This document shows, one piece after another, positions 1,175-52,800 of a stretch of DNA of 64,000 bases. Positions within the stretch are counted from its first letter, which is position 1; every line of letters starts with the position of its first letter. Source of the DNA: Perna viridis. Taxonomy: Eukaryota. The position numbers and the translations under genes were made by a program. A model generated the notes under the pieces. It saw only the letters and a list, made by a program, of their open reading frames with translations. It was not told the origin of the DNA and did no database searches. Location of the stretch: the NCBI GenBank assembly GCA_037379345.1, contig CM074512.1:58859597-58923596 (forward strand), given 5' to 3'.

Positions 1175-4100
1175 GTAGGTGGTTATCTCCCTTTGTTAAG
1201 CACCAGTACACAGCTGTAAAGGTATACACATATACACTGTATATTATCATAGTAATTAGACATATGCCTACAATACATATACCTCCAGTTATTATTACTG
1301 TACTCATTTCCAAATACATGGTCATCAGTAATTAGCAAAATGTGTTGGTCAATGACCAGCATTTTTAACCGTTTCCGGAGCCTTGATGTCCACGTGTATT
1401 TGGTATTAAAGAGTCCAACATCTTACAAAGATATCTTTAACACAAAATTTTCAAATTTTCTATCTTACACATTAAATAATACGAGTACTATTCTCTTTAG
1501 TGATACATGATCCTTGTATCTTATTAAAGGAACAAAAGTGTAAGGTGCTGTAATTCTTTTATTATGCTTTATTAAAAACTGAGTATTTTTGTCTCTCCTC
1601 TCATGTGAAGTTAAGAAAAATCTATCTTTGTTTATAAGCAGATTATTTGCCGTAAGGTCGCCAAAATGAGTCAGTGAACCTTTTAGGTTTCATTTCATGT
1701 GATGAGAGTTTTCACCAGCCAGACACCCAGACTATGACAAACTTTACAGTTAAATCATTTTGAAATATTAAGTTAGGTCAAAGTTTTATTTTAAATCACA
1801 AGATACCTATTTATCATTGTAGTAACAAAAATATCATTTTGTAAAGGGAGGATGAACATAAGTTGTATCTTTATCCAATTTGAAGCAAAACTGCTGTTTA
1901 GTCATGCAATGAAAACTGTTATTTCAATTTATTGTTGGGTTGATAAATTTTATGACAAGCAAACATGAGTTTTATTTTGACATTATTAATTTGCTTAGGG
2001 AAATGACATGGTCCATGTACTTTTTATTAGAAGTTTTTTTTTATAATTTTTTATTTTTTTCCAAAATTTTCAACATACAATATACATACAATACATTACA
2101 CAATTATACATCATAATCATCTTTTAACACAATATGTATATATAAATGTTCAAAAATTGGTGTTTTTCAATTTATAGAAAAAGAATGAGCTACAGAAAGA
2201 TAAAAAAGGAGCTAGGGATAGCATATAGAAAAGATTTAGAAAAGAAGAGAAAAAAAAAAAATTAAATGAATAAGTTGTTGTCCTGTTTACAATATTGACA
2301 CAATTATGTTAAAACATTTTGGAATTGTTGCCATTTCTTGTTAAATAGTTCAACTCTTTTGTTTTTTACAGATAACATTTTTTCTATTTTATACATGTAT
2401 TTAAGTTTTTCTTTCAGAGCAGTTAAAGATAACATTTGTTTAAAACAGCGTGTGTTATAAATATATTGTTTGATATTTAAAATTATAATATTATATGGTT
2501 CTCCCTTGGAAGTATATGATGTGTTTCCAAAAATGAAATTTAACTTAGTTAATGGTATGCTTATGCCATGTATCAAAAACCAATTATCAATTTCACTAAT
2601 AACATTTTGTACAAACTCACAATTCCAAAATAAATGCTCAATAGTTTCTGGTTCTACATTGCAGAATGTACAAGCAGAATCATTGATAACATTTATTTTA
2701 AATAAAAATTTGTTTGTGGCTATTATACGATGGTTTATTCTGTATTGTAACCATTGCAATTTCGTATTATTTGTGACTGTAAATGGTAGCACAAAAATCT
2801 TTTTCCAATTCAAAGAATCGTTATCAAGTACTTCAGTCCACTTAAGTTGTCCTTTTGGAGTAGAATCATTTTGGTTTAGTACTTTATACATATCTCTTGA
2901 GCCCTTTTTGCTTCTTAAAATAGTTTGCAAAAAAGATGGAATAAATGGACGCTGTAATTTACAGTTTCCTACATAGAAAGCTTTAGCAGCATGTTTTACT
3001 GCCGACATTATACTATTATACTTCATAAAATTAATATTGATTCCATATTTGTGTTGTAACTGTTCCAAAGAAAGATATGATCCATCATCATTTATTAAAT
3101 CATTTATATAATGAACACCATTGACAAACCAATCTTTGTAAAAAACAGTTTCACCACCAATCTTAATTAATTTATTATACCAAACTGGATTGGCAAGAAA
3201 GAACTCCCAATCTACATGTTTTTCTTTCTCCAAGACCATTGCCCAGGAATTTAGAACATCTTTCCAAAATTTATTTTTTAAGTTTTTTTGAACATTTTGT
3301 ACATATCCATCCCCACAATTAAACAGTTTTTCAGAATCTAAAGATGACATAAAGATACTTAGCCACTTTGAATTATTTTGAAAAGCTCGTCTTATCCAAG
3401 TAGTTTTTAAAGCTGTAATGAATGAAAACAGATTAATCATTTTAAGACCCCCATCTTGATACTCTTTTTGCAACACATCTTTCTTTACTCTACTGATAGG
3501 AGAATTCCATATGAATGTAAAAATCATGTCATTAATTTTTTTGATAATATCGCTGCTTGGGTTAGGTAATGAAATAATAAGATGATTTAACACAGGCAAT
3601 ATAAGTGTTTTTACAACTGTTATTTTACCAATGACTGTAAGGTTTCTTTTTGACCATTGATTTATTAAGTTTTTAATTTGTACAAGTCTTTCGTCATAGT
3701 TCAGTTTAATCATTCTATCTAGATCAACATCAAAATTCAGACCAAGGAGCTTAAATGATGTTTCCCCCCAAGTAAGATTCTTGTTTTTGCACAAGATATC
3801 TTCACAATATCTTTTACTTCCAATCCAAATTACTTGGGTTTTGGAGAAATTAATATTCAAACCTGAGATTCCAGCAAACCAATCTAATTCTAACAATGAT
3901 TCTTGTAAAGATTTTTCAGTTCCGTCTAAAATTAATGAAGTGTCATCTGCGAATTGTGACAGTTTATGTTCAATTTGTGTAATGTGAAGTCCATTAATGC
4001 TTTTTATTAGAAGTTATTTGAGCATGATGACCAAGTCATGTGCAGTCAAGATCTGTCAAATACTGACAGGTTCCACAAGGAAAGATTGATTCATTGGAAG

Positions 4101-7100
4101 AAAAGTTATTTATAGATAAGAGAAAAATGAACTTTGAATTAAATCATTGTTCCTATTCTATCTGTACCCATCAGTCTGAACTGAACTTTAGTTTTGTGGA
4201 AAATTAGTGAGGACATTTCTTTTTATTACAAATAGACTGTAAAACAATTCAGACATGCTTACCCCTCAGGAGCACCACATGTCACTCCGGTTTTTATAGC
4301 TCATCTGGCCATAGGCCATGTGAGCTATTGCCATCACGTCTGTCATCGTCAGTTGTCCTCATTAACAATTTTTCAAAACCTTCTACTCTGAAACTACTGG
4401 ACCAAAAAGAAACCAATTTGGTTTGAATGTTCCCTGGGGTATCCTGCGTAGAACTGGTGTGGGGATTTTTGATCCGTCAAAAAACATGGCTGCCATTACT
4501 AAAAATAGAACATAGGGGTTATAGAGTAGTTTTTGGTATATATCTCCAGAACAGTTAGGTTTAGCCAAATTCTGACTTGGGGGTAATAGTGTTTAACATG
4601 ATAATCTATCTGTGGTTAAATTTTCATTTTAATCTGGTAAGCCATGTTGAAGAGTAATCAAGGGAACCAAGGCCATAGTGGCAATCAAAAGAATGTAATC
4701 CAGGGACAAAGACCAGACATGGAAAACAGACATTCACAACAAAGAACATAAAGTAACTAAAATCATACATACAAAGTATCAAAAGTAAATGAGCAACTCA
4801 GACTCCACTAAAAACTGGGAGCATGGACCAGGTGCACCGGTAGGGTAAGAGTCCTCTGCTTTTCTAGAAACACCCGCCGAGTTGCTCATAAAAAGTCAAG
4901 TCCGGGGTAGACAAACGAGGAAAGGAAAACCATGACCCGTTGAATACATCAGTTTTCATGATTCTGATGGATACACCATAACGATCCACGAGTTCATTAT
5001 GATGACCATAAAACTTCTGTAGTGATGACTTCAATCTTGTAGCAACATAACCCTGTTCCAGAAGCCTATTTGTTAGAGTTCTAGCGCGATACAAAAAGTC
5101 TGCATAGTTTCGGCAAGCTCTGGCATAACATATGAGTTGTGATATGAACACTCCATACGCAGGAGCCGAAGGGATGTTGCCACAGATGAAAGGAAAGTTA
5201 ACAATTCTGAATGAAAAGTCATCACGTTTGTTGTAAAGTTTGGTCAATAGTTTTCCTTTACCATTGATTTCTAAGTGTAGGTCAAGATATGAGGCTGACC
5301 TCACAGTGTCTGTAGTATCCTTTATCTCAAGTTCTTTTGGGTAGATGCGATGTATCAAATCCCCCAAATTAGGATTGTTTAAAGATAATACGTCATCTAT
5401 ATAGCGGAAACTGAGATTGAAGGATCTAGCCAAACAATATTCTTTCTTTCTGATCAGATCAGCTATAAAGTCAGCCTCATAAGAGTGAAGGAATAGGTCA
5501 GCAAGTAAAGGAGCACAATTTGTTCCCATTGGAATGCCGACTGTTTGTTGAAAAACACGTCCACCACACTGGACAAATATGTTGTCGATTAAAAATTCCA
5601 GCATTTTGTAAACATCTTCCTCTGTATATTTGGAAGATGATTTGGAATTATTTCTTACAAAGTATGAGGAATCTCTACCAAGAACTATATATTTGTATCT
5701 AGGTGTACCATCTTTTTTGGAAAAACAACGATGTATAATGTTTTTAAGTCGGGATTTTAACTGAGTATGGAGAATAGAAGTATACAGTGTTGAAAAATCA
5801 TAGGTTTTAATGCTATTATATTCAGATAATAGTCTTGAACTGATTGTCTCCAAAAGATCTTTCGAATTTTTCAGGATCCACATTGAATTAATACCACTAC
5901 GGGAGTAACAAGTGTTGTGGTAGGACTGTAGACCCTCTTTGACAGTTGTGAGTATAGAAGTTAAAAGTTTTGAAAGAGGTTTGGTGGTACATTTTGCAGA
6001 TCCAGCTATGAAACATTGTTTGTATGGATTCTTGTGAAGTTTAGGAATCCAGTACATAGACGGTAAATCACGATCACCGTCCTTGGCAGAGAGACTAAAA
6101 GACGATAGCACAGATTTATGGTTTTCCACAATCTCTTCTTTGGAGAGAGTGGTAGCAGTGTAGGTCATATCACTGCTATTATTTTCTACGTCTGCCTCTG
6201 ATAATAAATATTGGATATAAAACGTTTTGCAGACAAAAACAATGTTATTGCCCTTTTTCAAGGTTTTTTTTATGCTATTTTTAATGTTATTTCTTTTAAA
6301 AATCTTCTCCTCTGACACTACTCGACCAATTGGAACCAAACTTGGTATGAATGTCTTTTGGGGTATTGTGCATAGAACTGATATGGGGATTTTTGATCTG
6401 TCTAAAAACATGGCTAAAAATAGAGGTCAGACAGTAGTTTTTCACATATATCTCCAAAACCGTTAGGTTTCTCAAAATTATTTCTGCAGCTGAGATGACC
6501 ATAATGATAATCCTACATTGTGAATGCAGGTTGTCTTTGTTTCCAGTTTTCACTTACATGTACTTGGACCTTGACATATTCAAATTGTCCCATTCTTGAC
6601 GCTTCGGGATTGTATTGCCAATTTATTTTGCCCACAGTGTTTTAATCTAATATATTTTATTTACTCAGTAAGGTTGCTCGTTAGTTCATTTTACCATCTG
6701 TTTTCAGTAATGTAAAGAAGGATGTTCTCTTTCCTAAGTCTTCCTGCTAAGCCTTGATTTATTGTGGAATAACAATGGTATTTTCCAGTTCTGTTCAAAT
6801 AAATCCTTATCCCTTAGACTTTGTAATCCAAACTGATTAATCAAAACTTAATCCTTTAAGGGAAACTATACATGTTGATATATATGAGATATATATGAAG
6901 GATGACATTGATCATCAAAGGTTTATCTTTATTCAGGATGGTAATGGGACATCATTCAAATTTTTATAAGAAAGATAAATGAAAAGTACTTAAAATTGCT
7001 AATGTGAAATGGGTATATCAAAGACAGTAAATTTTGGGGAAAAAACATGTTCAAGAACATGTAAATTGACAAGGATGAATATCAAGAATGATTAAAAAAA

Positions 7101-10100
7101 AAATACCGGTACACGCAGAGATGAAAAGCATAAACCTCTATAAAAAGGGGGATTGATCTCAGGTGCTCAGGAAGGGAGGGCAGTTCCTGCATCTTGCAAG
7201 ACACTTGCCATGCTGTCTGATGATGGTCATATCATGTAAAGATTAGAGGAAGACAATATACATGTATGAGAAATTTACTTCATTCAATAAAATGTTTTTA
7301 AAAAGATCTATTGACAAGCAGTCATAATGTTTTTTTTTTCTAACCTTACAAAGGAGCCAAGTTTGCATTATCTTAGTAGTTATAATTTAATAAGATAATG
7401 TAATATGTTAGTGTTTAAGATAAAACCAGCTGCAGAAATATACCCAGTGGCCAGGATAAACAAATACATACTGAGATGCCAAACTTTTATCCTTTAATCA
7501 ACCATTAGATTAATTTAACATTGAAGCTTTTCTAGTGTGAAGTAGGATTATCTCTCTGGAAAAGTCTTGGCTGATTAATCTAATTAAGCTGAACATTCAT
7601 TACCACATGTGAAAAAGTAATGGAAGTAAAATATGAGTTCAACTCTCAGTGGTACAGATGTATACTTGTTTGATCATCATACTTCATTTTCAAAAATATA
7701 GATCTTTATTTTTAATATGGTAATAGTATTTGGTGACTCTTTTATACGATAAAATATGATTTTTGCCCTGAAAATAGGAAAACTGCAGCCTTGATTAAGA
7801 AAGACAAATCTGTTATTTTATTTGAATGCTCATACAGTTTAAAAGATATTTTATACAATTATGGCATCTTAATTAAGTACTTTTTGTATTACAATTGTTG
7901 TACTGATTGATGATCTATATTGTTTACTATGAGACTAGTATTACCTAGAATGGTCTCAAAGGAGCCTGCTCATTAGGGAAGTCTGAGAAAATTCACCTGT
8001 CTGAAACTCCCTTTTTTCTCACCTTACAGTATTTTGGGAGACCTACAATATATTAATTCTTTCATTTTTATTTTACTATTTTTGGAGCTTGTATGAAAGA
8101 TTTTTTTTTCATTTTTTACTTGTCATATATTTTGCAGATATTTTTACGCTGGTTTTATACAATATAAATCACTCATCATCGATTACTTTCCATATACATG
8201 GTTTTACTTGTAAAGAATTTCCATTTAAATTCTCAGGCATGATCACATATTGCTTTTCTTCCAGAACTCTTGTCTACAACCAGTGAAAAAATCAAGCTAG
8301 TTACTTCTACGTTTACTTCATTGATTACTGGAGTCTCTCTGGATTTTACCACCTCTACTGACAATTCTATTCTGAATGTCACCAAATCTACTCAATTTCT
8401 TCTTAGTAAGGCAGGAATGTTGGAATGGTCTTTTTGTTTCAACTAATGACTAATATCTTCTTTCATATAAATGCTGCTTTCTACTATAACATGTTTTCAT
8501 CATTCATGAGTTTTATTTAAGTCCATTCAAGTGAAGTTTTCCACAAGTTACTTACTTCTTAAGTAAAAGTCTGAATTTGACAGTCTTTGAATTTTACCAC
8601 AAACTTAACAAGCCATGGCAAAAAAATTATAGGCTTGTGAGTTTTGCCTGAAATGAGGATCAACAGGCAACATAAAACAAGATTTCCAAGTTTAATATTT
8701 TCTAGCAGTGTTCGATTCTTTTACTCATTTCTAAAGTTAGTTTTATGATAGGTATGCAAATTTAGAACACTCTGCTTGCCCAAATTCCTTTGTTTTTAGA
8801 GGATACCATGTAACTTTTTATTGGGACATCACAAATATGACACATTTTATATCTCACCTGGCTAAAAAAGGAATATCTTTTTCTCTTTAGTGAGAAAATA
8901 GTGTCTTGTAAACAAAAATTGAAAATTTCAGAACTTGAGTTTTTTCACAATCAGTTACTATACTACCCTTCCTTGTAGTTAAATCATTTAATCACTTCAT
9001 TGAAACTTTCTGGAAATATTTTAGTTCAGTAAAAAAAAACAATTATTAAGCATCAAACTTGTTAATAGCAGTGAGCAGCATATAACATATGGGGTTTTAA
9101 TCTAACATCATCAGCACAACCAGATTTCATCACTATGTCTAATCAAAAGTAATTCTTATGTAATTAACAGTGTTTTCTTTGGACATGGCTGTAGACTTTT
9201 TTGCATGACTAACATGTTTTTTTTTTTTTTTTGGTTTTTAGAATTTCAGGATTTTGTTGATTAAAGACCAACAATCCTTGAAGCTGCTATTTTTTTTTAA
9301 TTTGCACACTTTTATTTATAACCAAACTAATTTCTTCTTTGATTATGGCTGAAATATTGAGTACATTTTATATATGTATTTTTCATGTTTACTACAGGGC
9401 TTTGTTAAGTGAATGTTTTCAGTTTTTTAATTTTATTTTTCATGAACCAATCCACCCTAGTGAACATTACTTTAACAAATCTTGTTACTCATGCACTTAC
9501 ATATAGGAGAAATAATTGAAACATATAAGATAAATGTTTAGTTGAGAATCTTGATTTATTATTAATGTTTTATACAATTGTTCCTCTTACTACTTAGTAT
9601 GTCTATTTTGAACATTTGCCACTTTTTTTTTTAAATAAAAACATTTCATGAAATAATAAAATGGTTATTCAGAGTGCATTCTTTCATTTTTTTCTCAAAA
9701 TGTTAACTTAAGATTTCAATAATTGATCCTCAAACTCAAATTTCTGTCAATTTAATATTTTTCATTACAGATGCTGGCTTCCCTGCATGGTTGATAGGTG
9801 TCATTGCTGTAGTTGTTATTGCTATCATCATCATCATCGTGGTTGTTATTACCTGTATTGTGAGGTCCACAAAGGGAGAAAGGTGGGTTGTATTTACACG
9901 GTTTACTTGTTCTTGTTCAGATTCCAATATACAGGATTGAGAGGAGAAAGATGAATGAACTTTTGTGATTGAAACTAGTAAAATGATAAGGTTGCCCATA
10001 AGCATAAAATGTAAGACTCATAATAAGAATATGTAGTACTTGATGAAAAATGATAGTTCTGGTAAAAAAATCACTAGTTTGCTCTTCAATGTAGGATGAA

Positions 10101-13100: not shown

Positions 13101-16100
13101 CACATTTATATTGTAGAGAAAAATTAAAGAGGTAAATATAAGCACCATATAGTCTAATCTATTGCTTTGTTTAAGTTTCTAGTTGAAATCAGATTTCTGT
13201 ATTTTAATCTGGATTGATTTTGTTTTTCTTTCCATTGACTTCATATGTAAGCTGTTTTATTAATTTTCATTCACTTCATTGGTACTTATGACTACATGTT
13301 AAAAAAGAGAATGACAAAAACTTATTTTATATTCTTCCTATTATAGAAATCTGGTATCAACAAAGCTGTGACCATCTTCTTTCATCATTCCCTCTATATT
13401 ATGTACACACTCACAACTGTATGCTTATCAAACATATCCTATGTCATGTTTTCAAGCAAAATTATTTACTTGTTATCAGCACCCACAGTTCATAAAATTT
13501 AGTTTAAGCAGCACGCCTGTGAGAATAGTTAGTAAAAAAAGTAACAAATAGTGACGGAGTTAGACAAAGAGTAGGCAATAATATATAACCCTTTCCATTT
13601 TCATATTTTTAAAGTTACCGCAACTATAGACTGAATTAAGCAATCGTCAAAGAAATTATTTTACTTGGTCCCTGCTATCAGACCAAGTATTCTTAGATTC
13701 CACTTTCCCCTCACTCGGGGCATGGTCCCTGCTATCAGACCAAGTGTCCTTAGATTCCACTTTCCCCTCACTCGGGGCATGGTCCCTGCTATCAGACCAA
13801 GTGTCCTTAGATTCCACTTTCCCATCACTCGGGGCATGGTCCCTGCTATCAGACCAAGTGTCCTAAGATTCCACTTTCCCCTCACTCGGGGCATGGTCCC
13901 TGCTATCAGACCAAGTGTCCTTAGATTCCACTTTCCCCTCACTCGGGGCATGGTCCCTGCTATCAGACCAAGTGTCCTTAGATTCCACTTTCCCCTCACT
14001 CGGGGCATGATCCCTGCTATCAGACCAAGTGTCCTTAATTCCACTTTCCCATCACTTGGGGCAAGTGTAATTTTTGTTTTAGAAAGTTATTTATTGTGTT
14101 CCACTTTCTCTTTGGCAAGTAGAAAGGTTGAATTTTTGAAGGGATTTGTTAAGTTTGGAAAGCAAAATTTAAATGTCTGTAAATTAGTCTTCATATGAGT
14201 TTTTTTTTTGGAAACCTAAAATTTTGCAAAATCCTAGAACACTATCAGAGAACTGTGGTCAAAGTAATAATATACTTACAGTGAATTCCTGGGAGATGAG
14301 CAATATGTTTGAATTACTGAAGTATATGTTTTTAAATGGTGCTATGAAAGTAATTATTTTTAGAAGTTCCACATCCTGTGGTTTATCACATCTTTTGGTT
14401 TGTGAAATGTAAAATTTGTGGATTTCAAGAAAGCAGTATGACTTTTCACGAAGAAAAATGTTTTTTTAAAAACAGTTTTAAGACATATGCATGGCAATTT
14501 ATTGTTTGCAGCACTGTTTTTGTTTGCAACCATCATTGCGTCCAATGCTTTTTGCCTATTGCTACTAACTACAAAGAATGTAGAATTTTACATGCAGAAA
14601 TAATTCCCATGTTTAAATTGAAAAGATTGCCCTTTTCAATATATGTAGAACTAGTTAAAATTTGGCTTCCCTTGGTCTAAAGGGAATGTAATTGTTTTCT
14701 GTAAAAAGTGATTAATTCCATCAATCAGTTAAAATGGAAATAAGAAATTAGACTTTTATAAATAATTCTTACAGCAATGATTTTTACTGGTTATATGTTG
14801 TATCAGCATTTTGCCTGTTTTCAAATTTTAAAGTTGAATTTAGAAGTGTTAATCACCACCCCAATGGCAGATCCTTAGCTTTACAAACAGGGATCCTAAC
14901 CCAGGGGCCAAAATTTTTCCTTAAGATTTGTTAAAAAAGAGCATTATAATTACTTAAAATTTATAGTAAAATGCTAAATAACAAGTTTGCTTGATTATTT
15001 GTTAAATTGTTTTGTTTTCTGATCATATTTTTTTATGTTTTATAGTATAGATGTATTTAATTTTATATTTGGGCTTAGGGATCTGCCCATAAAAACGTTG
15101 GCTAATTTGGTTTATCCGGATGTAAGGCAGGCAAAAATTTACATACAAAATCAAATTTCAACAAAAAGCATCAAGCCAATATACAAAATGTTGATGATTG
15201 AGATCACTTAATGAGAACTTAATTTGATTAGGTATTAACATCATTAGATCTTGTAGTGCTAATCTAATATTCTGCTTCAGTAATTTTTTGATGTAGAATA
15301 CTATATATATAATCAACAGGAAGTAGTACTGGTGATGATTAGTGTCAGGCAGAGAAACCAATCAAATTTAAATAAATGTATGTGGAGAAGGTTTGCTTTT
15401 TTCACTGGTTACCCTCAAAGTTCACAAGATTTTTTATATGATCATGAATAATTGTGATCATACAATGGTATCACACTGTTGTCGTCTGTAGGATATCATG
15501 ACAATAACTTGACTCTGCCAAGAACGCATTAAGATTTTATTCATGCGTGGAACAAGTTCCACACACTTGTTAAATGTAGGCATTCTTTGCCACTCATGAT
15601 CATATTTTGGCTATTCACAATAACCAATAGATAATCCTATTAGTACAATATTTCACTGTGAAATAAAACTTTTGATCATCATTTCTGAAAGTATATTATA
15701 TTATTTGGCCTTAAATAGGCCTTAATGACCCTACCACATTTGTTCAATCTGTCACATCTCTGCCTGACAATAATAATAACCTGTACTTAATCCAGTTTGA
15801 ACCATTATATTTATGTATGTAATTGAACTCATAAACCATACACCATGGAATATAATTATATACTATATAAATGCATGACCTCCCAATTACCTCATTATAA
15901 CCCTTGTTGTATGTCCTTCATTCCTGATTGTCTTCATTATGTTTGACTTCAGGTTATGTAAGTATAATACATCTTTTAAAATAAGATATGAATGAATTTT
16001 CTTTAGTAAGTTACATATAGTAAAACAGCCCTTCCTTTGATATAAATTTCCCATGTATATTAAATGTAATTTTATTGGGACATGTACATATGTCACAGGG

Positions 16101-31600: not shown

Positions 31601-34600
31601 AGGAAACTAAGTCTATTATTGGGTCAAGAAATAAAATTTAGTACAAAAGTATTGGAATAAAATTAAGAAAAGCAAGGCAAATTTGATATACGTATGCTTA
31701 TTTACATTACATGTTATACGAGTATAAACCAATTACAGAACTTTTTTACTGTTATGAATAGATCAGTTAAGTTATTCAAGGTTTGTATTTTTTCTAATGC
31801 CAGGAAATCCTTATCCAATTTCATGATTAGACAATTTCCATCCTAGAAATGACATACTTGTACTAGTGTAAGTAAGACTTACAATCTTAGACAGGTATAT
31901 ATCTCAAACGTTTCTTGCTTGTTTTGCAGGTGAATATGGCAAAAAGAATTCTATCACTGATTATGTACCTGAGAATGTACAAAATACCACCACGGCCATT
32001 ACATATGGAAATTCAAGATTATATGATGCATCAAAATGCCAAGAAATCAGAGAAGAAGTTGAACAATATTTTGCATCGTCTACGGAGAATTTCAGACGTG
32101 AAAGCAAAGCAACATCTGCAAACTTGTTCAACAAAGATACGTTTTCCTACAGCGAAAACCTAGAAAACGAACCGCATGACATAAACCCTGTTTATAAAAC
32201 AGCTTCTGTTGACAGGAGCGAGGATGAACTAGACGACAATCCACCTCTATGTTATGACGATGAAGATGATTTAGAACCGTTGGATATTTCATGGCCACCA
32301 GTGCCAGACTTAGCCTCGCTTTTAGAGGAAGATACCCGAGTTCATCTCACCGATATAGATGATGATTACACTCAATATATCTCATGTAAAAGACCAGTCT
32401 ATCCTGTAGTGGAGTATCCATTGTATTACAGGATTGAAAACCACGTGGATTTTTCTTCTGAGGATTTGTTTCAAGATGAGTCTGAAAGTATTGTCATCAC
32501 TCCATTATCTTCTGAGGAAAGTGAGGTCGAGTATGACACAGAAAGTTCTACTCAATATACAGAAACTTCTGGACCCGAGGCGACTGCCAAGCATATTGGA
32601 AATAAAATAAACATTCAAAAAACAGTCTTGGGGATTCCACCAAAGAACATTGATAAACGTAAGTATAGTTTGATATACAGTACTCCAATTAGTAAGCGTA
32701 CTTAAATAGATAGTAAAGTGATTTCACAACCCACGAGGCTTATTATCTAGGTATACACATATGCTTAACGAAGAAGTCGAAGATTCGAAACAGCACTTGT
32801 TAGTAGATGCATTATGCTGGGCCAGTGATAAAAAAAAACATCGGTAATCAATGTTAAAAATAAAATAAAATAATAACAATTAATAACAATAAAGACCGGA
32901 GTATGCACAACTTCTCAGTAGCTGAATAAAACATTTTCCTCAAACAAAAACAAAAAAGTAAAAATGTCGCATCGCATGTTTTCGGTATGAAGATTTTAAT
33001 CGCCAAAATTTAAAATTTCAGAATACAGTCAATCCGGGGCGCCTGTTCGATGTCAAAATTTCTTGAAACAAGATTCTAACCAATTGGCAACTGAAATAGT
33101 CAGTACGGAAATACAACGTACTGACAAAGAGAAAATGGTGGCCAGCGAAGCAATAAACAAACCTAATTCAATCGACAGGAATTGTTTCAGCGTTGAGCGA
33201 TTCTTCAATGATACCGCTAGTGATGAATATCCAAACAGCGCAACAAGTGCATCAGAAAGCTATCTTGATCCAAAAAGTGATGAATTGTTTGGAAGTGATA
33301 GTGAATTGGAAGAGTTCGAAAGAGAAGAAATTGACAATGTCACATGTATGATTTCTTCAACAACTGGAGAAGAAATTTTCCTCGACCTCAGTGAATTAGA
33401 CGAAAACAGCGATAATCATCAAATAAAAAAATCACTAACTGCAAGCTCCCCAAGAGGATATGTTGAAAATGGCGATGAGGCATCAAACGATGAAGACTTC
33501 TGGAGCACAAATATGAAATGCACTGATGTACAAGCTAAACTGAACGATCATGTTGTTCAACCAACCAGAAAACAAGTTGAATCGAACGATCATGTTGTTC
33601 TACCAACGAAAGAACAAGTGAAACGTTACGATCAATATATGCTACAATCGGAAGAAGTAGTAAAACCGAACCATGAAAATGCACTGCCAATCGAAGAACA
33701 AATAAAACTGGACGATCAAAGACCACTATCTACTGAAGAACAAGTAAAACTGAATAGTCAAAGTTCATTACCAACTAAAGATGCAATATCGAAGCATGTC
33801 GAAAATAGAAACATTCATGATAAAATGGATGAAAAAGTCAATACTGTACAAACACAGGAAAAGCCTGATCATAAAGACACCAACAAATATGAAACTCTAG
33901 CAGCTGCAACTGTGATGGAACTATCCACTATAACTGATGACATTATGTATGACGAGGTCGCAAAAAGAATGAAAGAAATTTCAATGGATGAAATTTCAAA
34001 TAATGTTAAAGTTGTCAGTAAATCTGTCCTAAGCAAAGAAACCAACATTGGTATAATTTCTAGAGAAGACCCTCCAGATATTGTCAGCAATCCACTCATT
34101 CAAAACGACCAGAAAATTCAGCCTTGGGCATTCAATTGCGGAATAAAAGAGAGCTATGAAGAAACCTCATATGACAGTGATGATTTCTGGGAATTAAATG
34201 GTAAACATATAGCTGAACAATCAGACGATGATGGTACAGTTTCAAACAAGCACGACAATGGCGTAATTGAGCATACTGCAAGCAATAATAAATTCAATTC
34301 TGTTGCAGAACAAACCTCCGAAACTCATATGGCAGATTTGAATTTGACAACTTCTGATGTCCAGAAGAAAAAAGAAAAAAAGGAAAACTGGCCTTCATTA
34401 AATGACAATGTGAATGAAATCAATGTCGCCGATGAAAGTTCTTGTGACAGTGAAGACTTCTGGAACATGAGTGCTGAAGAAGGTGAAGAAAAAATCGAAT
34501 CAAAGGAATGCGAAATGCTGCCGGTTGAAAGTGTCGCTTGTAACAGTTACGAAGATCACAAGATTGCAAGTTATGGTCAAGTGATCCCCGCCCAAGGCAA

Positions 34601-37600
34601 TAAATCTGAGGACCTGAAACTTGACAGTTTCATTCATGATGTCATAGACAGAGCAAAATTGCCACAGGAAGCAGTTTCAAGAGAACAAACTGAATGTAAA
34701 CGGCAACTAATTGATGGCACAACTTTAAACAAATATGGAAATAGCAATATGAGGTTGGTTGCTAGTGAAAGTGGAATGAAACCTTCTGAGTCCTCTGTCA
34801 TGAAACTTAACACTTTAATTAATGATGTCCTAGAAAGAGCAAAATTACCAGAAGACACAATTTCAACAGAAGAAACTGATCGGCAATCAATTGAAAGTGC
34901 AACTGAATACAAACGCGAAGAAAGCAATGTGAAGTTTGCTGCCTGTGAAGGTCTGTCTGGGTCATCTGTCATGAAACTTGACACCTTAATCCACAATGTC
35001 ACAGAGCAAGCAATATTGCCAGAAGACACAGTTACAACAGAACAAACTCAATGCTCATATAAAGACAGTAGAGATGATAAAAACATGGATAGTCAATCAA
35101 CCAGTGGCATTAAAAATGAAAAACCATTAGTCAACCATTCACACTCCTTTGACAAAGAATACCCAAGTTCTGTTAGCAGCAGTGATTTCTGGAAGAGCCA
35201 CACATCCGATAAACACGAATCCAAAAATCAAGTAAAATTAGTTGATAACGAGAGCAAGCAGATACCATTAAGTAGCTCAGATTATTGCGTTCATATTATG
35301 TCAAGGTCTGATGATAGCCCAAGCCGTAAATCCTCCTCATGCGCAAGTCATGACAGTAAAAACAAGTATAAAACAAAACGCGATACTTCCAGTGACGAAA
35401 GCGAAAGGAGCAGCTGGACCAGCCGAAGTAGTCGCAGTTCCAGGAGCGATCGCAGAAAAAGGTATACGAAACGAAGGGGTAGTTCATCAGAATCGTATTC
35501 CAGAACAAACAGCAGTAGAAAATCGTACAGTTCAAGAAGTTGTACGAATAGTACTGAAACAACTACTGACTCTTATTCAAGTGATGACTACACCAAAAGT
35601 TCAAGCATATCGAAAATATCTGCAAGGTTCGATTATAGCAGAAGCACTGATAAATCAAAAAGTTCTGACGACAGAAGAAAAAGCAGGAACACTAATTCGT
35701 GTCTCAGCGACGCCAGTAATCAGAGTTCAATAAAATCGGAGCTGCAGTCCATCAATCATTCAGCAAAAAGCGATCGAAATGAAATTAATGAACAAAATAA
35801 ATCTCCAATAAAGGAAAAATGGCATCATTCTGATCAAACAAGAACTGATAACACAAACTGTGCCATACATTGCTCCGAAGACAAAAGTAGCACCAGTAGC
35901 ATTGCTGAAGACATAGTATCTTTCGAGAGTTCCCAGTCCAAACACTCTGATAATAAAAAGTACAATCATGTTTCTGAAAATCCATGCTTAGCTAGCGATG
36001 TATCTTGCGGCAACGAAAATAGCACAAAAGAAGCCGTGGAAGTTGGAACAACCAATAATGACCACTTTAATGATAGCGCTATAGACATAGAAGTCAAAGT
36101 GGAACCATCTCAGCAAGCTACCCAAAGAGAATCCGAAAATGATAGTAGCAGCATAAGTAGCATAGCGGAAGAAATCGAATCTATTTCAGCAAAAGACTGT
36201 CCACCACAAGAGAGTGAAAACCCGATAAATGCAAAAGCTGGAGTTGGAGCATGGGAATCTCCTACTGACAATGTTTTTAGCAGCCATGATAAAAGTGATG
36301 CCAAGCTTTCAGATCATGAGAGCAAAACTTCCTGTGATGTTCATTCCATCACTTCCCCTAAAAACGAGGGCGACAAAATCGCAAATCTAAACAGAAGTCT
36401 ACCAGAAAAAGTTTCTCATGAGTTGATCACAAGTGAACAAAGAGGATCTGAAAGCGATCAAGGCAGCACAAGTAGCACAGCAGAAGAAATTTTATCTATT
36501 TCTGACGAAAGCAGATTTTCTAAACCTTGTGATCATTCAAAATCTAAAGTCGCTGCATGGCTGTTTTCTGAGAAAGTCGCTGGGTCACAGCCTATGGCTA
36601 CCGCTAATGTATTAAGCAATGATATCACGGGCAAGATGGGCCAAGGAAAGGCCAGATATGGTCGGAGAAGCCAACTAAAAAAGTCAGATGTTGATGTGAC
36701 GAACACGGGGTCCAAAACAATGGATATCTTTGCAGACACAGATTGGCTAAAACCTCAGGAACACGAAATTAAAAGAGGTATTTAACATTTTACAGCTATG
36801 AAAAAAAATATCATGTTTGTGTGTAATTTTCCAAGATATGCTTAAAATTGTTTAAACACGATGATTAATTTTTTAAAAATATTTAAACAAATTGAGCGTC
36901 ATATTCTGCGATAACAATACTTATACTTGTGAAAAGTAACCAAAAAAAACTCATTTTAGGTAAAAAATGATGCAATTACTTTGTGATACATTTAATATCT
37001 TATAATTATATTTCAAATAGCAACAAACAGGTGAAATGGAAAGTTAGTTTTAAAGACATTAATTAATATATACTTAGAAAGTGATGGTCTTTTTTCAGGT
37101 GAGGCGAAGACAGAAATACGTGTCGATAAATCACACATTGAAAGCAGCTCTTGGAATGATAATGAAAAGACCGAAAGTAATACTAATAATTGTGATAACG
37201 GTCAAATTAATGAATATAAGAAAGGTGCAAAAGAAGTAGAGGAACAAAAAATAGACTTGGCGTGCGAAAACAAAGAAATACCCTCTATTACCAAAACGAT
37301 TGGTATTAATGGAGGAAAAAAAGAGCCAGTTGCTGAAAACAAAACACAAGGGGTATCCAAAGAGAAGAACAATGCTAAACCCAAAAAGGTGTCCAACATT
37401 TGGACAAAGATGATGGCAAAGTATGATGCCCCCAGCAAGCTAGAAAAAGAAGCAAAGAGTAAGAAATGGACAAAACAACGAGATTCAATAGCCAACATGT
37501 CAGATTCGGACAGAAGTCTGACGGATTCTGAATCTGACTCTGGCCAGAAGAAACCAGGCAGGACCCCCTTCAAAGCATTGGCGATAAACGACAGTTATGT

Positions 37601-39947
37601 TGTTGAATCTCCCAGCGAGTCAGATCCATGGGAGCTGCCGGATTACACAGGTGGTAATTTCATCATACCGTCAGAGGATGATGGTGATGAAATCGATAAG
37701 CTGTTAAATCAAATGGGGAAGCGAAAATCATCGAAAAATCAAGATCCGTCCCAGAAGTTAGAACAAAAAATACCTCTTGTGAATGAAAAAGAAATTTTCG
37801 AACCATTACCAACCAGTTCGAATATTACAAAACAGAATCTTAGCGCAGTTGGACGAACTTGCTTTGACGATATAATCGAAGAAGATATCTCTTCACATTC
37901 TGAAAAAATCGAAGTACCACAAATCGTAACCAAGCTCAAAAAGAAAGGACTGAATGTAAAATGGGCTTCAGATATCGTCAAAGTCAAATTATATGATGTT
38001 GAAACAGACGAATCCGAACAACAATATGATTATCTAGAAAACAATGATTGGGAACTATCTGATGATAATGATGATGACAATGAATATGCACTCCGGTGTG
38101 CTGTCAATGAGTTGAATGATGATGATACGGATATCGATGAAGATTTTGATGATCCGTTTGATGACAAAGCTTGCTCGATCGATCTTAATCCATGTGATGA
38201 AGCCCGGCGTGAAAGGCCCGCCAATGAATATGCACTCCAGCGTGCTGCTGTCATTAAGAAGAATGATGATGATACAGATATCGATGAAGATTTTGATGAT
38301 CCGTTTGATGATAAAGCTTGCTTGGTCAATGTTTATCCGGGTGATGAAGCCCAGCATGAAAAACCCGCCAATGAATATGCACTCCACTTTGCTGCTGTCA
38401 ATGAGAAGAATGAAGATGATACGGATATCGATGAAGATTTTGATGATCCGTTTGATGATAAAGCTTGCTCGGTCGATGTTAATCCGGGTGATGACGCCCA
38501 GGAGGAAAAACCTACCAATGAATATCCACTCCAGTATGCTGCTGTCAATGAGAAGAATGATGATGATACGGATATCGATGAAGATTTTGATGATCCATTT
38601 GATGACAAAGCTTGCTCGATCGATGTTAATCCAGGTGACGAAGCCCAGCGTGAAAAGTCCGCCACTGAAAGCGATGTAGAAGATTTAGATAATTTTGTTG
38701 ATGATAAAGCTTGTTCTATTGATGTAAACCCTGGCAATGAAGCCCAGCCACTTCAGCCTCACCAAGTTCAATGTGGTGATGAGCCTGAAAACGATATTGA
38801 AGAATATTTTAATCATCAGTCTGATGACCAAGCTTGCTCATTTGATACAAATCCCGACAAAGAAACTCAGTCTCCAAAACCTCAACGAGGTAAATTTGGC
38901 GATCAGTGCAATGACAAAGTCTGTACCGGTCAAAATGCAACACTGCCGCCTAAGCTTGACAACTGCCAGTGTGATAAAAGCTCAGATTCTGATATCGATG
39001 AAGAAATTTATGAGCAATCAGATAGAAGCGCTTGTCCGAAGCCTTTAGTTATAACTCCGAACGACAATGCAAATGAAAAAGAATCTGCAAGGCCTGATAA
39101 CGACCGTGGCAACGAAACTTCTAATGGAGAATTCAGCAGTAAGCTCGGTGAAGAGTTAGATACAATACCACATACTGGTATAGTAGAAACACATTCAAAC
39201 GTTGAAGTTCGCAAAGAGGAAGAGCATGAACATAGAGATATTTCGAAGGAAATCAGTAGGGCTGAAAGTATAAATCTATCTAAACCAAGTCACAAAATCG
39301 AACCGCGCAGCCTGATAAATGTGAGTCCACCAAATCAGGAAGAAATCGCAGATATAAAACCAATTGAGCGGGAGGTACTAATGCCTGTGGCAATAGGTGC
39401 ATCTTTAGTACACATCGGGAATAAACAAGCTACTCTGATGAACTTGAGTTCACAGAAACCGGAAGATATTCCTGAGATGAATTCTATTGAGCGACAGCTA
39501 CAAATGCCCGGAACAAATGGTATTTCTAAAGACACTGGTAGTAATGCAACTGACCTGTTGCTGGGAAATCCTTTGCAAAGGAGAGGGTCAACGCTGACAC
39601 CATTAGCTTCTGTCGAGGAATCTCCCAAGAAAAAGAAAGTTAAAAAAAAGAGAAGTGACAAAACAAAAACAACTGTTGCAGATAACGCAAATGAAAAGCC
39701 CAAAGAAAAGTCTGATAAAAAACCCAAAGAAAAGGTTTATAGAAAACCAAAAGAAAAGGTCGATAAACATCCTAAAGAAAAGGCTGATAAAAAACCCAAA
39801 GAAAAGGTTGATAAACAACCTAAAGATAGGAAGGCTCATAAGAAACCTGAAAATAAACCAAAAAAGAAAGAAGTAGTTGTCTATGAAGATTCGAGTACTG
39901 ATGGATTTGAAATGCCCTCATTTGAACTTGCTGAAGACTATATGTAG
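28602..39947 (+). CDS. Uncharacterised giant acidic low-complexity protein, ~2,908 aa, 9 coding exons
   Basis: Exons 28602-28605, 28832-28906, 29599-29690, 29886-30387, 30611-30678, 30947-31598, 31930-32658, 33022-36777, 37099-39947; all GT-AG, phases chain correctly, total 8727 nt = 2908 aa + TAG. Confidence 0.78.
28832..28906 (+). CDS. Giant protein exon 2 (after ATGG at 28602-28605)
   Basis: ttttcag|ATAAG...GAGC|gtaagt; (M)DKHADCRLARYLPDIERVVGPFTDE. Confidence 0.62.
29599..29690 (+). CDS. Giant protein exon 3
   Basis: aatttcag|AG...CTAAA|gtaggt; phase 1-0. Confidence 0.65.
29886..30387 (+). CDS. Giant protein exon 4 (three TQT motifs)
   Basis: ttgcag|GAT...CACC|gtaagt; within ORF 29838-30434. 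Confidence 0.78.
30611..30678 (+). CDS. Giant protein exon 5
   Basis: ttgtag|ATCC...GGAG|gtgagt; phase 1-0. Confidence 0.72.
30947..31598 (+). CDS. Giant protein exon 6 (S/Q/Y-rich heptad-like repeats, KRVSF)
   Basis: tttcag|ACA...GAAG|gtagga; ORF 30974-31660. Confidence 0.78.
31930..32658 (+). CDS. Giant protein exon 7
   Basis: ttttgcag|GTG...AAAC|gtaagt; ORF 32124-32705. Confidence 0.78.
33022..36777 (+). CDS. Giant protein exon 8 (3756 nt)
   Basis: tttcag|AAT...AGAG|gtattt; 1240-aa ORF 33063-36785. Confidence 0.88.
37099..39947 (+). CDS. Giant protein terminal exon 9 (2849 nt)
   Basis: tttttcag|GTG...TAG; 896-aa ORF 37257-39947 is open upstream to the acceptor. Confidence 0.88.
38079..38750 (+). 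repeat. Coding tandem repeat, 144-147-bp (48-49 aa) unit x4 plus a partial copy
   Basis: Unit starts at 38079, 38223, 38370, 38517; core DTDIDEDFDDPFDDKAC. Confidence 0.95.
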
Positions 39948-46800: not shown

Positions 46801-49800
46801 TAATCTTACCCTAGATCCTCCAGTCTATATTTATCCTCAGGATCAGCAGGATTTCCAAGTCCTAACTGCTGAATCAATATGTTTTTCTGATCAGGTGTCA
46901 AAGTCTTATCTTTCAGAATTTTCTGTTTTTGATTTGAGAGATCTTTAAGCTGGCTCAAAAACACAGCTCTGTGAGTGTCAATTAATTCAAAATCCTCATC
47001 ATTTAGAATTCCAGTAAACCAAGCTGGTGTCTCTGGCTGTTTAGGTTTTGGCGGGTCAAGGATCAGTTCTTTGTCCATGTCCTCAATACTGTAGGATGTC
47101 GTATAGCTGGTCTGGTTACTACTTGGTAAATCTGAATGGTACGATTCCATGGAACTTCCAACAGAGCGATGAAGAGATTGTGTGTACTGTTGTGTAATAT
47201 GGTGACCTACTTCACCCATACACATCAGTTTCAAGAATGGCATAGATAATGGAATATCTATAATACGCTTGTCTTGTAGACATTTGGCAAGAAGTGTGCC
47301 GAGAAACTGGTACAGCTGTTCTATGTTGTGCATGTCATGGCTATCCTGTGGATATGGAGCTGGGAACAGTCCACCAATCCTCTGGATGTAGTAACCTGGT
47401 GGCTTTATACCATGACCAATGTCAACCTGTAGTTAAAATATATTGTAAGCACAAAACAATAATAATATCAGAATATTGAAAGTTTCAGATATATTGCAAA
47501 TATAGTTAATGTAAAGCAACGTTATTAAATGTATTATTAAATTTAAAACAAATTTGGCTTATTTTTATTTTGAATCAACACCCTTTTTGCCATGTACTGG
47601 TAGCCTACAGTTTTATTAATAGAGGAAAGATTCATATGAAAATCTCCATTATAGATATTCCAAATAGAAGAAAACATATGGAATTAAAAAGATATTTTCC
47701 TTAACAGAATTAAGGAGGTAAGGGACACAACTCTTACAAATCATCGAGACGTTTGTATACAACATTTTACATCAATCACATTTATGCATCAAAGTAACTT
47801 GAACTGATTTCATTCTGCTTCAAATTAAAGCTTGATAGGCTTTGTAGAAATTGAATATGATACAAACATATCACTGAATTAAAAGTTATGTCCCTTACCC
47901 TAGGTCTACCTCCTTAATTACTGTTTTTTTGAAATAGAAGAAAGGGTGTGTGTAGGTCAAGTTCAAACAATTTTATTAAATTAAATAAAATAAGTATAGT
48001 ATTACAAACCTCTCTTTCCAACTTGTTTAGAGCCTCATCATCACACAACCACAACCCTAGCTCCTTCTTCTGAATTTCAGCTGCAACAAGAGCATAAAAC
48101 TCTAAAGTGGGACCCAAACCAGTTCCTTCTTCTCCTGAGAATTCTATCTCTAGTATAGATTTCCTTTGTGAGTGGTGTTTCATTACTTGAACAGCCCATT
48201 CTAAGAAATGGTCACCTCTTGGAACTTTAACTCGTTCATGTTTTAGACGACCAATTCTGTATTCACCACCTTCATCTCTTCGTGGCAAAGCACCTCTGCT
48301 TCTTTCTAATGTGGCATCTCTTCTCTCTTGTAACCAAACTATTGACCTGACAAAAGAAATATCATGAGATTAGAATATATATTGAGAATGGATATGTGTA
48401 TATGTCAAAGAGACAACAACCCCACCAGGATGAAAATGGCTGAAAAACAATCTGTTGGAAATGATTTATTTCAGAAGTGACATCAGCAGTTAGGAAGGGA
48501 ATGTTTTAACTTTTAATGCAGAAACAGAATGTATGTTATAGGAAGTCTCACATATTTCCAATGGTGTAGATATATAACAACATAGCTGTGCATTATCAAC
48601 ATGGTCAGATAGATCTGTCCCTCATAGACAATGCCTAAACTCTTATTATACACTTGATTTCTACCATCTAAACCTACCTAGAGCAACCAAATGCAGTACA
48701 AGAGAAGTAAAGTTGTCTGGTGTCATAGGAGAACAACATGGGACACCATTTGGTTAGTTTCTCACACCAGTCTGGCAGTGCATTACTAGCTAACACTAAT
48801 GGATCCTGGATCTGTTGGACTAATTTATTGGTTATCTTCTTACTACAGAAATCACCAGGAGGAAGGTTTACCAAACCTCCTATGTCATCTGAAAGATATG
48901 AAACAAATCTTAGATTGTAGAGTGGACCTAAAAAATGCACAGAAGAGGACCACTGATAAGAATTTATTACCTTAAAATATTTTGTTTACATGAATATGAG
49001 AAGGTTAGTACTGTTTCATGATTCTAATTTTATACTGGCATCATAGTTTTAATAAAGAGAATGTAAACCATTTATCTCATTGATTTGTTTGTAAATAGAA
49101 TTATCAAATGCTATTATTTTGAGTTCATCAACATATCCAAAGAGTACAAACAGTAATGTTCAACAAGAACCATATCATATTTCCCTACCAACATACCAAA
49201 TATGGCCACTGGCAAGAATTTATTATCTTAAAATATTTCCTGTACATGAAAAGGGCTTATACTGGTTTCATAATTTTGATAAAAAGATTGTAAATCATTT
49301 ACCTCATTGATTTTTTGTGAATGCTTCACTCACTGAACTGATCAAAATGATCAAAATGCTATGATTTTTATCATCAATGTCAACTTATCAAATAAGTACA
49401 AACCATAGCATTCTTCAAGAACCAAATCATAATTACCCTACCCTACTTACCAAAGTTTTGCTTCATAGACTGTTCTACCAAATCATAATTACCCTACCCT
49501 ACTTACCAAAGTTTTGCTTCATAGACTGTTCCATACCAATAGCATACAATCTCTGTAGAAGCTGGAGTACATGGTCGATGGTACAAGCTGCCGGATCGTT
49601 GTTCTTAGGTACGTCAGACTCACTCAAAATCTGGTTTGTATCAGACTTGCTCTCAAGTTGGTTGTAAGTAGAATCCTAAAATAAAACCAAAAAATTTCAT
49701 CCTCTTCATATATTATTGTTATCGATAACACCTTGAGAACTCATCAAATAGTTTTACCTATGAACACTGTGCAACAGAAAGGTATTTACTGTAATAGCAT

Positions 49801-52800
49801 CATGTGTATGTTACCATATAGCAAGTTGTTTAGACGGGTGTAAAATTTGGAGATTTTAAGGCAAAAAGGTATACCAAAAATTTGGTGGTTGACGGATGTT
49901 TAGTGGTGCACAATGTACTGAAGCCAAGAGTAAAAATTTTGAGGAATTTATTTCGGTGTTTTTAGACTGCAAAAATACTGAAAAATTAGCATGCAGCAAA
50001 AAATTATCGCTATGTGGTATCCCATACAGTCAACTAGTAACTAAAATTTTTAACAGATTCGGCACTTATATTCTATACATATTTCATGTTCTTTGTTGTG
50101 TGTGTCTGTTTATCATTCTTTTGATTTCCACTAGAATCTTGGTTCCCTTGATTACTCTTAATTTATTTCAAACAAATTTTCAAGTGTTAAATATGATAAT
50201 AATTAACTGTAAGATGAAACTTTTTCAAACACTCACAGTCATTTTTTCTACATCTTCTTTCACTTCTCCTTCTTTCAAAGCTCTGTATACAATACTGCAA
50301 ATACATTATAGTAAATATCAATGTGTACTCCTAGATCAAACTAACAAAGTCACATATGTAACATGATTTTACAACATAAGAAAGATTCTAATAAACTACA
50401 CAATATAATTTTATTCTGCATTTCAACATGAATGAAGCAACATCATATCAAAATTTAAGAACACCTGATAAACACTTACGTATATGTAGGTTCCCAGATT
50501 CTCCTAAGCCTCTCTGACTTGCTGCCTGTGACTCCCTGTATCAGTAACTTTTGTATAAACCTGAATATACACTGTTTATCTTCTGTAAGGACTACTTCTG
50601 CATCTTCCAACTAAAAAGAATATCATATACCATTTTATCTACTAGTATGATAAGTGTACTGGATATAAGAAAACCTACACTTTGTTTTAAACAAAATGTT
50701 ACCAGCTATTACATAAAAAGAATACCCCAACTCAACCATTTCAGTCAACTTAAGTCATTTTGTAAGCAAGAAGTAGATAAGTTAGAAAACTGAAAAGAAG
50801 AGAAAAGAAGTCATCATGCAAAAGCTATATACCAAATTTCTAAGCATTCTCTCAAAAAAGGAAGAGAAATCTGTACCAGGAAAAAATAAGAAACCAATGT
50901 GATAACAATATAGCACCACTCCAATGACTGGGTATATAATATGGAACAGAACATGCTGAAGTTTACACCATGTTACAAATGGAACAGGAGGTGCTGAAGT
51001 CTACACCATGTTACAAATGGAACAAGAGGTACTGAGGTCTGCACCATGTTACAAATGAACAGGAGGTGCTGAAATTTACACCATGTTACAAATGGAACAG
51101 AAGATGCTGAAGTCTACACCATGTTGCAAATGAAACAAGACATGCTGAAGTCTACAACACGTTACATATGGAACAGGAGATGCTGAAATTTACACCATGT
51201 TAAAAATGGAACAGGATATGCTGAAGTCTACAACATGTTACAAATGGAACAGTAGGTGCTGAAGTTTACACCATGCTACAAATGGAACAGGAGGTGCTGA
51301 AGTCTATACCATGTTACAAATGGGAAAGGAGGTGATGAAGTCTACATTTTGTTACATATGGAACAGGAGGTACTGAAGTCTACACCATGTTACAAATGGA
51401 ACAGGAGGTAATGAAGTCTACACCATTTTACATATAGTACAGGAGATACTGAAGTCAACACCATGTTACATATGGAACAGGAGATTCTGAAGTCTACATC
51501 ATATTAGATATAGTACAGTAGGTGCTGAAGTCTACACCATGTTACATATGGAACAGGTAGAGCTGAAGTCTAATTCTACACTATGTCACATTATTCAACA
51601 TAAAAAAATAAAGAGTTACTTACAAGTTTTTATAAGGACAATGTATTCTCTATCAAGATGAAAAACATATGGTGGAAGTACATTTTATAAGCAGCAGGGT
51701 GGTTACAGGTAAAATTTTCTAAAAATTAAAGTGAATTAATATTTAACTAAATCTTTTAAAAGTAATTCTGTGTAAAATCTAAAGCATACATACCCCTGGC
51801 AAACATGGAGCTTTTATACAAAGGACAAGCTTAGGCTGCTGTACTGGGTAAGAGCTCTCTGGTGAAGGTAGTGGATCCTTGCCTGAAAGTATACATGTAT
51901 AAGTAAAATGATGAAGAAGAAAAAGTTTGTCAGATTTTCAAATCTTGCTGAAAGGGCATCAATATACATAAAAAAGTAGAACTGTTCCAATTTTTTTTTT
52001 CTGATTTTTGTGTGCAGTTTACCTGGTGGTGGAATTTCAAAGTCCTGAGTTTGGTTTACATTTGTTCTACCAGGTCTTGGGTCAAAAGCTGGGATAAGGG
52101 CAGAGAACTGTCTCTTCAATACATATTCATCATCCCAGGTCTTTCTCCTCTCTCCCCTCATTTCCAAATCCTCCTCCTCCTACAAGATATAATGAGTGAA
52201 ATTAGAAGAAGATAGTCCGATCTTTACATCTGGTATGAAATGAAATGGTATGTTTGAAAGACTGGTTATAACTAGTGGACAAGGTCAGGGACCCTTTGCT
52301 AATAATTGATGCAGGTAAGTACACAAAATGATGCACAAAAGTTAGGCTTGGCCCATCTGAAAGATCCTATATTTATGAACATGCAGCAAATTAGTGTATA
52401 AACTGAAAGCTCACACCTTCTTATTCAATTGTACATACTAGGACATCTTCGTATAGTTCATCATCTTCATTTTCCTCATCATTTTCATCATCATCTTCAT
52501 CAGGGACAGGTAGGTCTTCTTCATCTTCCAGCTCTGCCAATAGATTGGTTGGATGACTGGTCTCTAAGAACTCATTATCACTCTCACTGGAGGTAGAGGT
52601 CAGGCTGCGGGTCAAGGCCTGACTCAATGATGTAACATTTGTCATTGTTTGGGTCGTTGTTAATGTGTTTGAGGTGGCTGCACTAGACGATGTTAAGCTT
52701 GGGTAGCTCTGAGCAGTACTCAGAAGGTTGCCTATAAATAAAAAAAAAATACTGTCAAACAGCCAAAGCAAACAGCTAACATGATCTTTGAAGTTTAAAA

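Follow-up and report, generated by a model that had tools for sequence, protein, structure and literature searches.

A conserved 3'-UTR motif with two covarying palindromes in a lineage of Naiad Penelope-like retrotransposons, and its possible role in symmetric RNA dimerisation

The sequence analyzed here (the window) is a stretch of 64,000 nucleotides of the Perna viridis genome. Exons of a HECT ubiquitin ligase gene occupy 46806-53630 on the minus strand (Pfam HECT on 46809-47432), and a non-LTR retrotransposon ORF with zf-RVT is represented by its C-terminal part at 2304-4013, also on the minus strand. At 33000-39947 on the plus strand there are two very long low-complexity frames (1261 and 970 aa) that contain 147-nt repeats and gave no Pfam match, and tandem arrays of 57-nt and 38-nt units are present at 13609-14121 and 50939-51648, respectively. 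The subject of this report is a 5'-truncated retroelement copy at 4650-6249 (minus strand), which comprises the C-terminal part of a reverse transcriptase (RT) and a 3' UTR and belongs to a young family, designated family A. On either side of it lies a piece of another high-copy repeat (4370-4491 and 6294-6415), the two pieces being 81% identical.

The window copy is cut at position 6249, and other family-A copies run past that point. Thirty close copies with 93-96% identity share a common end at about 4650; among 91 listed copies (from 90 of the first 100 places listed), 79 have their 3' end at 4644-4652, and the 5' ends are spread without a fixed position. The 723-Mb genome contains 15,339 exact matches to a 25-mer from the 3' end of the element, and inverted and tandem family-A pieces were found in several loci. 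The hallmarks of Naiads given in excerpts of PMC8557442 are an N-terminal GIY-YIG, Zn-finger-like motifs, CxC, DKA, 5' truncation and very high copy number. In longer family-A copies we could read DCSC (the CxC motif) and ADKA (DKA replacing DKG; L344, L348), as well as a GIY-YIG N-terminal to the RT with CCHH and an upstream CxxC (L347, L344; frames broken), which were compared by eye with rows of Fig. S2 of PMC8557442; Pfam gave no match on the downstream piece of these longer copies. As judged from these features, the host of the motif described below is a Naiad Penelope-like retrotransposon, a known kind of element, in agreement with the preliminary description of this DNA.

The motif is located at the 3' end of the minus-strand RT frame. 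The usual stop codon of the RT ORF (4930-4932, minus strand) is TAG in 15 of the 19 copies read and TGG in the window copy, which is why the frame extends into the motif here; given the usual stop, the motif is therefore part of the 3' UTR, about 40 nt past the stop. The relevant RNA is the minus (RT-sense) strand, on which all of the following parts lie. An 11-bp inverted repeat had been described as closing the motif (4789-4799/4879-4889); it is indeed present, but it represents the outer part of a 13-bp stem, P0, whose 5' strand (4877-4889) pairs with 4789-4801. P0 is followed by the near-invariant 5' strand of P1, CGGGUG (4871-4876), which is complementary to 4829-4834, and then by palindrome 1 (4861-4870), a 10-mer predicted to form an intermolecular helix, in which all 5 pairs change on both sides. 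The next segment (4851-4860) contains the AG-CAG linker and the 5' strand of a variable 5-bp helix (4851-4855), and leads to the conserved unpaired GCUYACYC (4843-4850), the first G of which is mutated in the window copy. Palindrome 2, ACCGGU (4836-4841), is a predicted second intermolecular helix and measures 4-8 nt in other families. At 4824-4834, the 3' strand of P1, CACCUG (4829-4834), directly abuts that of the 5-bp helix (4824-4828), and the motif ends at 4789-4822 with the P4 hairpin (4802-4822) and the 3' strand of P0 (4789-4801). A hairpin previously read as acc-aggtgcacc-ggt is not the conserved pairing.

A second copy of the motif, copy B (7125-7245, minus strand), is old and decayed and belongs to a sister family, family B. 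The 10-mers of the two copies, TTTCTAGAAA at 4861-4870 and TCTTGCAAGA at 7192-7201, are perfect palindromes as originally noted. Perfect 10-mer palindromes per se are common (110 in 63,991 window positions), and copies A (4789-4889) and B (7125-7215) align weakly on their own (nhmmer E 0.02). Copy B scores 52.6 bits with a covariance model that was built with copy B included. No RT remnant was detected in copy B, and its resemblance to 12 sister loci ends within 45 nt upstream; thus, it may be either a truncation or a non-autonomous element. The suggestion that 7125-7215 is a short element mobilised by family A is not supported as it stands; this copy comes from an older sister family, which has a palindrome of its own. 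Truncation at the 5' end is routine among short copies: 25 of the 91 listed family-A copies begin downstream of palindrome 1 and lack it. These counts show that the 5' end is not set by the motif and carry no information about the template. A third copy at 4252-4297 (plus strand; covariance model E 0.011) is a fragment containing the 3' half only, and it has the GACAT/ATGTC helix as in family C. Families A, B and C of this genome carry different palindromes, that of family C being self-complementary only via a central U.G, with A at position 7 in 6 of 17 copies.

The distribution of the motif was surveyed with the pattern CGGGTG-N-CAG-N5-GCTYACYC-N-CACCYG, which was derived from the copies in the window together with three published consensi and leaves the palindromes and outer helices free; P1 and the conserved letters are set by the pattern, and their conservation is only partly independent. 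The P. viridis genome contained 8,107 matches, with decayed copies being undercounted, compared with 0 for a reversed control. At least 122 metagenome loci matched the pattern, most of the 122 listed coming from a single dataset, and 37 of these 122 are preceded on the same strand by an RT profile match, in 36 cases within 345 nt. IMG/VR gave 0 matches with two motif patterns and 0 with an RT alignment. The 122 listed metagenome rows and 32 rows from the own genome were grouped into 32 clusters at 70% identity, one of which comprised 75 rows. As an independent filter that is blind to the palindromes, at least 4 of 5 pairs were required between the bases after CAG and those after CACCYG, and 25 of the 32 clusters passed. 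Among the clusters dropped with fewer than 4/5 pairs, L049, L063, L127 and L130 look like bacterial chance matches, and L064, L069 and L114 look like decayed copies (palindrome perfect in L069 and L114). GTDB served as a control: 32 loci matched the pattern, of which one (L216) had palindrome 1, and 6 of the other 31 had the palindrome-2 4-mer, by chance. L216, a 407-bp contig of a bacterial assembly, is a Naiad 3' end nearly identical to the pearl-oyster consensus Naiad_Pmar, and is therefore probably contamination.

Some of the surveyed loci differ from the typical context. L100:123-1013 contains a 796-nt unit with terminal direct repeats, and L105:1-1050 contains a 987-nt unit with direct repeats; both include all or part of the motif and showed no RT match. 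L100 may be a true non-autonomous carrier of the motif, and the short unit of L105 is a candidate non-autonomous element. In another group, the AAGACGTCTT family, the RT next to the motif is much more divergent and is encoded on the other strand (one dataset; hhalign E 7e-5), the loci being L123:816-861 and 1051-2361, L081, L153, L160, L165 and L169, and in L081 the motif lies in partial tandem repeats of about 177 nt. The motif may extend beyond Naiads.

We also inspected by eye the last ~300 nt of 38 of the 54 Naiad consensi in the supplement of PMC8557442, together with a short-substring search of the whole file. Within this material the motif was present in 12 consensi, from Clytia (two), oysters (three), ark clam, pearl oyster, hemichordates (four) and toadfish (named by file order), a range that covers a hydrozoan, bivalves, hemichordates and a fish; many of the Naiads inspected lack it, and a Chlamys stretch with similar letters was rejected since its 5' half is absent. 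All 12 motif consensi appeared self-complementary at palindrome 1 (9 perfect 10-mers and 3 via G.U), and palindrome 2 was perfect in 11 and contained one U.G in the other. The letters of GCUYACYC are identical in the published consensi. Five mussel and clam Naiads (Naiad_Mgal, Bpla, Mphi, Scon and Mmer) have an alternative 3' motif, GAGGT-palindrome-AAACC(N)GGTTY, again with a variable palindrome on a different scaffold (File S5 of PMC8557442 and L352-L363); it has 38 matches in the own genome compared with 0 in the control, and lies 240-360 nt past the RT match in 2 of 12 loci. In the Bfor, Acropora and Octopus Naiad ends of the same file, GAAAC precedes CTGATG near the 3' end, an order that resembles permuted hammerhead half-cores. 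Regarding such elements, PMC8557442 (Craig et al. 2021) describes only the absence of canonical hammerheads from Naiads, and the terms 'hairpin' and 'palindrom' are absent from its text.

Covariation of the palindrome had been proposed from two copies, and the larger sample bears this out. Among the matches listed, 21 of the 25 filtered clusters carry a fully self-complementary 8- or 10-mer (G.U allowed). Perfect versions of palindrome 1 are present in 17 of these 25 and comprise 16 distinct sequences; of the four clusters that are not self-complementary, three look decayed and L105 has an odd 9-mer. Considering the 22 distinct 10-mers among the matches listed, 98 of 110 cells were Watson-Crick, compared with a mean of 36.7 and a maximum of 56 in 20,000 shuffles, a control that, like the slid alignments mentioned below, ignores the relatedness of the sequences; the centre pair was Watson-Crick in 21 of the 22, with all four pair types, which occurred in 0 of 20,000 shuffles. 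The central 4-mer of palindrome 2 was self-complementary in 21 of 25 clusters (8 forms), and in 17 of 21 distinct spacers (shuffled mean 3.3, maximum 11), both again among the matches listed. For the motif as a whole, 95% of cells pair in an alignment of 28 sequences, compared with 36-44% for slid controls, and double changes are seen at 13 of 19 pairs; in the same alignment the variable 5-bp helix shows double changes at 5/5 pairs, with 94% of cells paired. The RTs of motif-sharing families are only 26-72% identical to each other, and the RT tree, which includes no named reference elements, is mostly unresolved.

Sense-strand constrained folds of 28 representatives place these parts in a predicted three-way junction. 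P0 continues without a gap into CGGGUG, the potential partner of CACCUG in P1. A pseudoknot is created where P1 is crossed by the variable 5-bp helix, and the P4 hairpin comes directly after, stacking on P0; in most representatives the outer stem, although of differing sequence, folds beside the core. P1 is without covariation support because it is invariant (and also fixed by the search pattern); it rests on the complementarity of its two invariant strands, and GGGUG could alternatively pair with YACYC. Plain MFE folding did not recover the pseudoknot, and copy B folded no better than shuffles. In the predicted structure both palindromes lie in the connecting strands of the pseudoknot and not in a hairpin loop, which disagrees with kissing-loop dimerisation in its classical form, an option raised in the preliminary description.

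Pairing between two RNA copies would be the simplest account of the palindromes. One alternative, to which we assign a distinctly low probability, is that the motif acts as a monomer, a protein-binding fold that does not dimerise and in which palindrome 1 is simply a tetraloop hairpin of 3 bp. The outer three pairs of palindrome 1 can close a tetraloop, and P0, P4 and the 5-bp helix are all intramolecular. However, both central pairs of palindrome 1 covary as well, and a hairpin cannot account for covariation of the centre pair because adjacent bases cannot pair within one strand; moreover, palindrome 2 is not long enough to form a hairpin. Energies also argue against a monomer: the lone hairpin of palindrome 1 is unstable (weaker than -1 kcal/mol in 23 of 26), and self-duplexes of the palindrome range from -6.8 to -19.8 kcal/mol.

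Palindromes read the same on both strands, and promoters have been placed within pLTRs in parts of PMC8557442, both of which would be compatible with a role in DNA (as promoter, endonuclease site or cDNA fold-back). This explanation, or an origin of the palindromes by template-switch mutation without selection, seems to us very improbable. The symmetry is kept while the sequence varies freely, which speaks against this explanation, and the distant 5-bp helix would be meaningless in duplex DNA; strand switching, for its part, would be expected to perfect stems, not loop centres. In addition, the non-Watson-Crick cells of palindrome 1 comprise 5 G.U, 0 A.C and 7 others on the sense strand, the ratio of G.U to A.C in the 5-bp helix is 4:1, and the sense strand folds better than the antisense in 25 of 26 representatives. 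The excess of G.U over A.C and the better sense folding point to the RNA of the element as the acting molecule. As far as comparison of sequences goes, palindrome 2, the covarying helix that would form the pseudoknot, and the G.U bias of the sense RNA are beyond what had been observed before.

Our preferred reading, which we hold with slightly better than even confidence, is that the motif is a conserved Naiad 3'-UTR element with a predicted pseudoknotted three-way junction, in which two palindromes likely bring two RNAs together as a symmetric dimer that serves retrotransposition. The partners would be either separate transcripts or tandem pLTR copies within a single transcript; joined via both palindromes, they would form a two-fold symmetric RNA dimer. 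The Naiad protein could then bind the conserved core of the motif, reverse transcription would start ~140 nt downstream of the motif, at the sharp 3' end at 4650, and the protein may jump between the two held templates to produce tandem pLTRs. Cross-pairing between families of the same genome would be prevented by family-specific palindromes; if the palindromes act as such family addresses, the different palindromes of families A, B and C are what would be expected. Work on Poseidon offers a precedent: according to PMC11167929, its reverse transcription begins at an internal position, 111-118 nt into the ORF and about 85-90 nt beyond the hammerhead site at +26; insertion is described as not needing hammerhead cleavage, and the Poseidon protein is predicted to be dimeric. 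We also considered whether UUACCCU might serve as a telomere template and discarded this idea, as the 3' end of the element is 140 nt further on and has no such repeats. Of the preliminary interpretation, the Naiad cis-element stands and palindrome covariation favours dimerisation; the kissing loop in its classical form does not stand, and the trans-mobilised solo copy is not supported.

Another explanation is that the motif represents a new self-cleaving ribozyme class, active as a dimer, that takes the place of the hammerhead in this Naiad lineage. Its size, its pseudoknot and the near-invariant unpaired CAG and GCUYACYC resemble a catalytic core, and the motif is placed like the hammerheads of Penelope-like elements (PLEs), which, as described in sections of PMC4209133 and PMC6765202, cleave as palindrome-driven dimers. 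On the other hand, the 5' ends of the 91 listed family-A copies are even from 4675 to 5075 (2-5 per 25-nt bin), and in another family, represented by 75 copies, there is a broad excess of 5' ends 7-26 nt upstream of the core without a single preferred base. Such an absent genomic cleavage footprint is weak evidence, because in Poseidon, too, RNA reads show no ends at the hammerhead site (PMC11167929). The lack of any match to Rfam ribozymes also speaks against this explanation, and overall we regard it as rather unlikely.

With regard to known RNAs, the hammerhead core reported as missing is indeed absent on either strand around copy A; more generally, CUGAnGA...GAAA occurred in 0 of 26 representatives (-100/+150 nt, both strands), and near copy B there is one loose CTGATGA..GAAA match on the antisense strand, outside the motif. 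Comparison with Rfam of window 4300-7600 and 18 loci gave weak hits far below the gathering scores and none over the motif core, and none of the Rfam 15 covariance models (twister, pistol, hatchet, SECIS and others) matched the motif. No description of it was found in the open-access literature (subscription papers being outside the scope): PMC10085705 names Penelope in its references only, and the retrozyme preprint 10.64898/2026.07.22.740005, in the part available, covers hammerheads only. Within Rfam and this literature, therefore, the motif does not correspond to an already described ribozyme or pLTR element. We regard it as a real and ancient structured RNA, undescribed in these sources, that belongs to one Naiad lineage and for which the comparative signs of symmetric dimerisation are strong.

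The tandem pLTR construction of Penelope-like elements and the success of Naiads without hammerheads are questions posed in PMC8557442, and the motif stands where other Penelope elements have dimeric hammerheads. If our preferred reading is true, specialists would be surprised to find a signal for genomic-RNA dimerisation in a retroelement that is related to telomerase and has no capsid; a new ribozyme class would be equally surprising. With an RNA of ~100 nt and natural swap variants, dimerisation, cleavage and RT binding can be addressed together.

HDV-like ribozymes have a layout with P1.1 GG, P4 and the catalytic-C J4/2 between the 3' strands of P1 and P2. They resemble the motif in size, crossing helices and a link to retrotransposons, but in the motif the two 3' strands abut (0 nt between them in 28 aligned sequences), there is no GG, P4 or J4/2 in this sense, the outer stem closes the motif, and Rfam gave no match. 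The hatchet ribozyme dimerises through a 4-nt internal palindrome; in contrast to the motif, which has no Rfam match, it is bacterial and its palindrome is not strictly conserved according to passages of PMC7357161. PLE hammerheads are similar to the motif in element position and in forming a dimer via a palindromic loop (excerpts of PMC4209133 and PMC6765202), the dimer of the motif being a prediction. They differ in that the motif has no CUGAnGA/GAAA core and a different topology in its predicted fold, and in that it has two palindromes of up to 10 nt compared with a loop of 2-4 nt. Finally, the dimer initiation site (DIS) of HIV-1 gives a palindrome-mediated homodimer of retroelement RNA, as predicted for the motif, through a 6-nt hairpin loop in the 5' leader (sections of PMC7357161), whereas the two palindromes of the motif would lie in pseudoknot loops, in the 3' UTR of an element without a known capsid. 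A self-complementary sequence with compensatory change, as in a retroviral dimer initiation site, is also what the motif sequences display. The fold of the motif fits no RNA family tested, and its likely function has known analogues.
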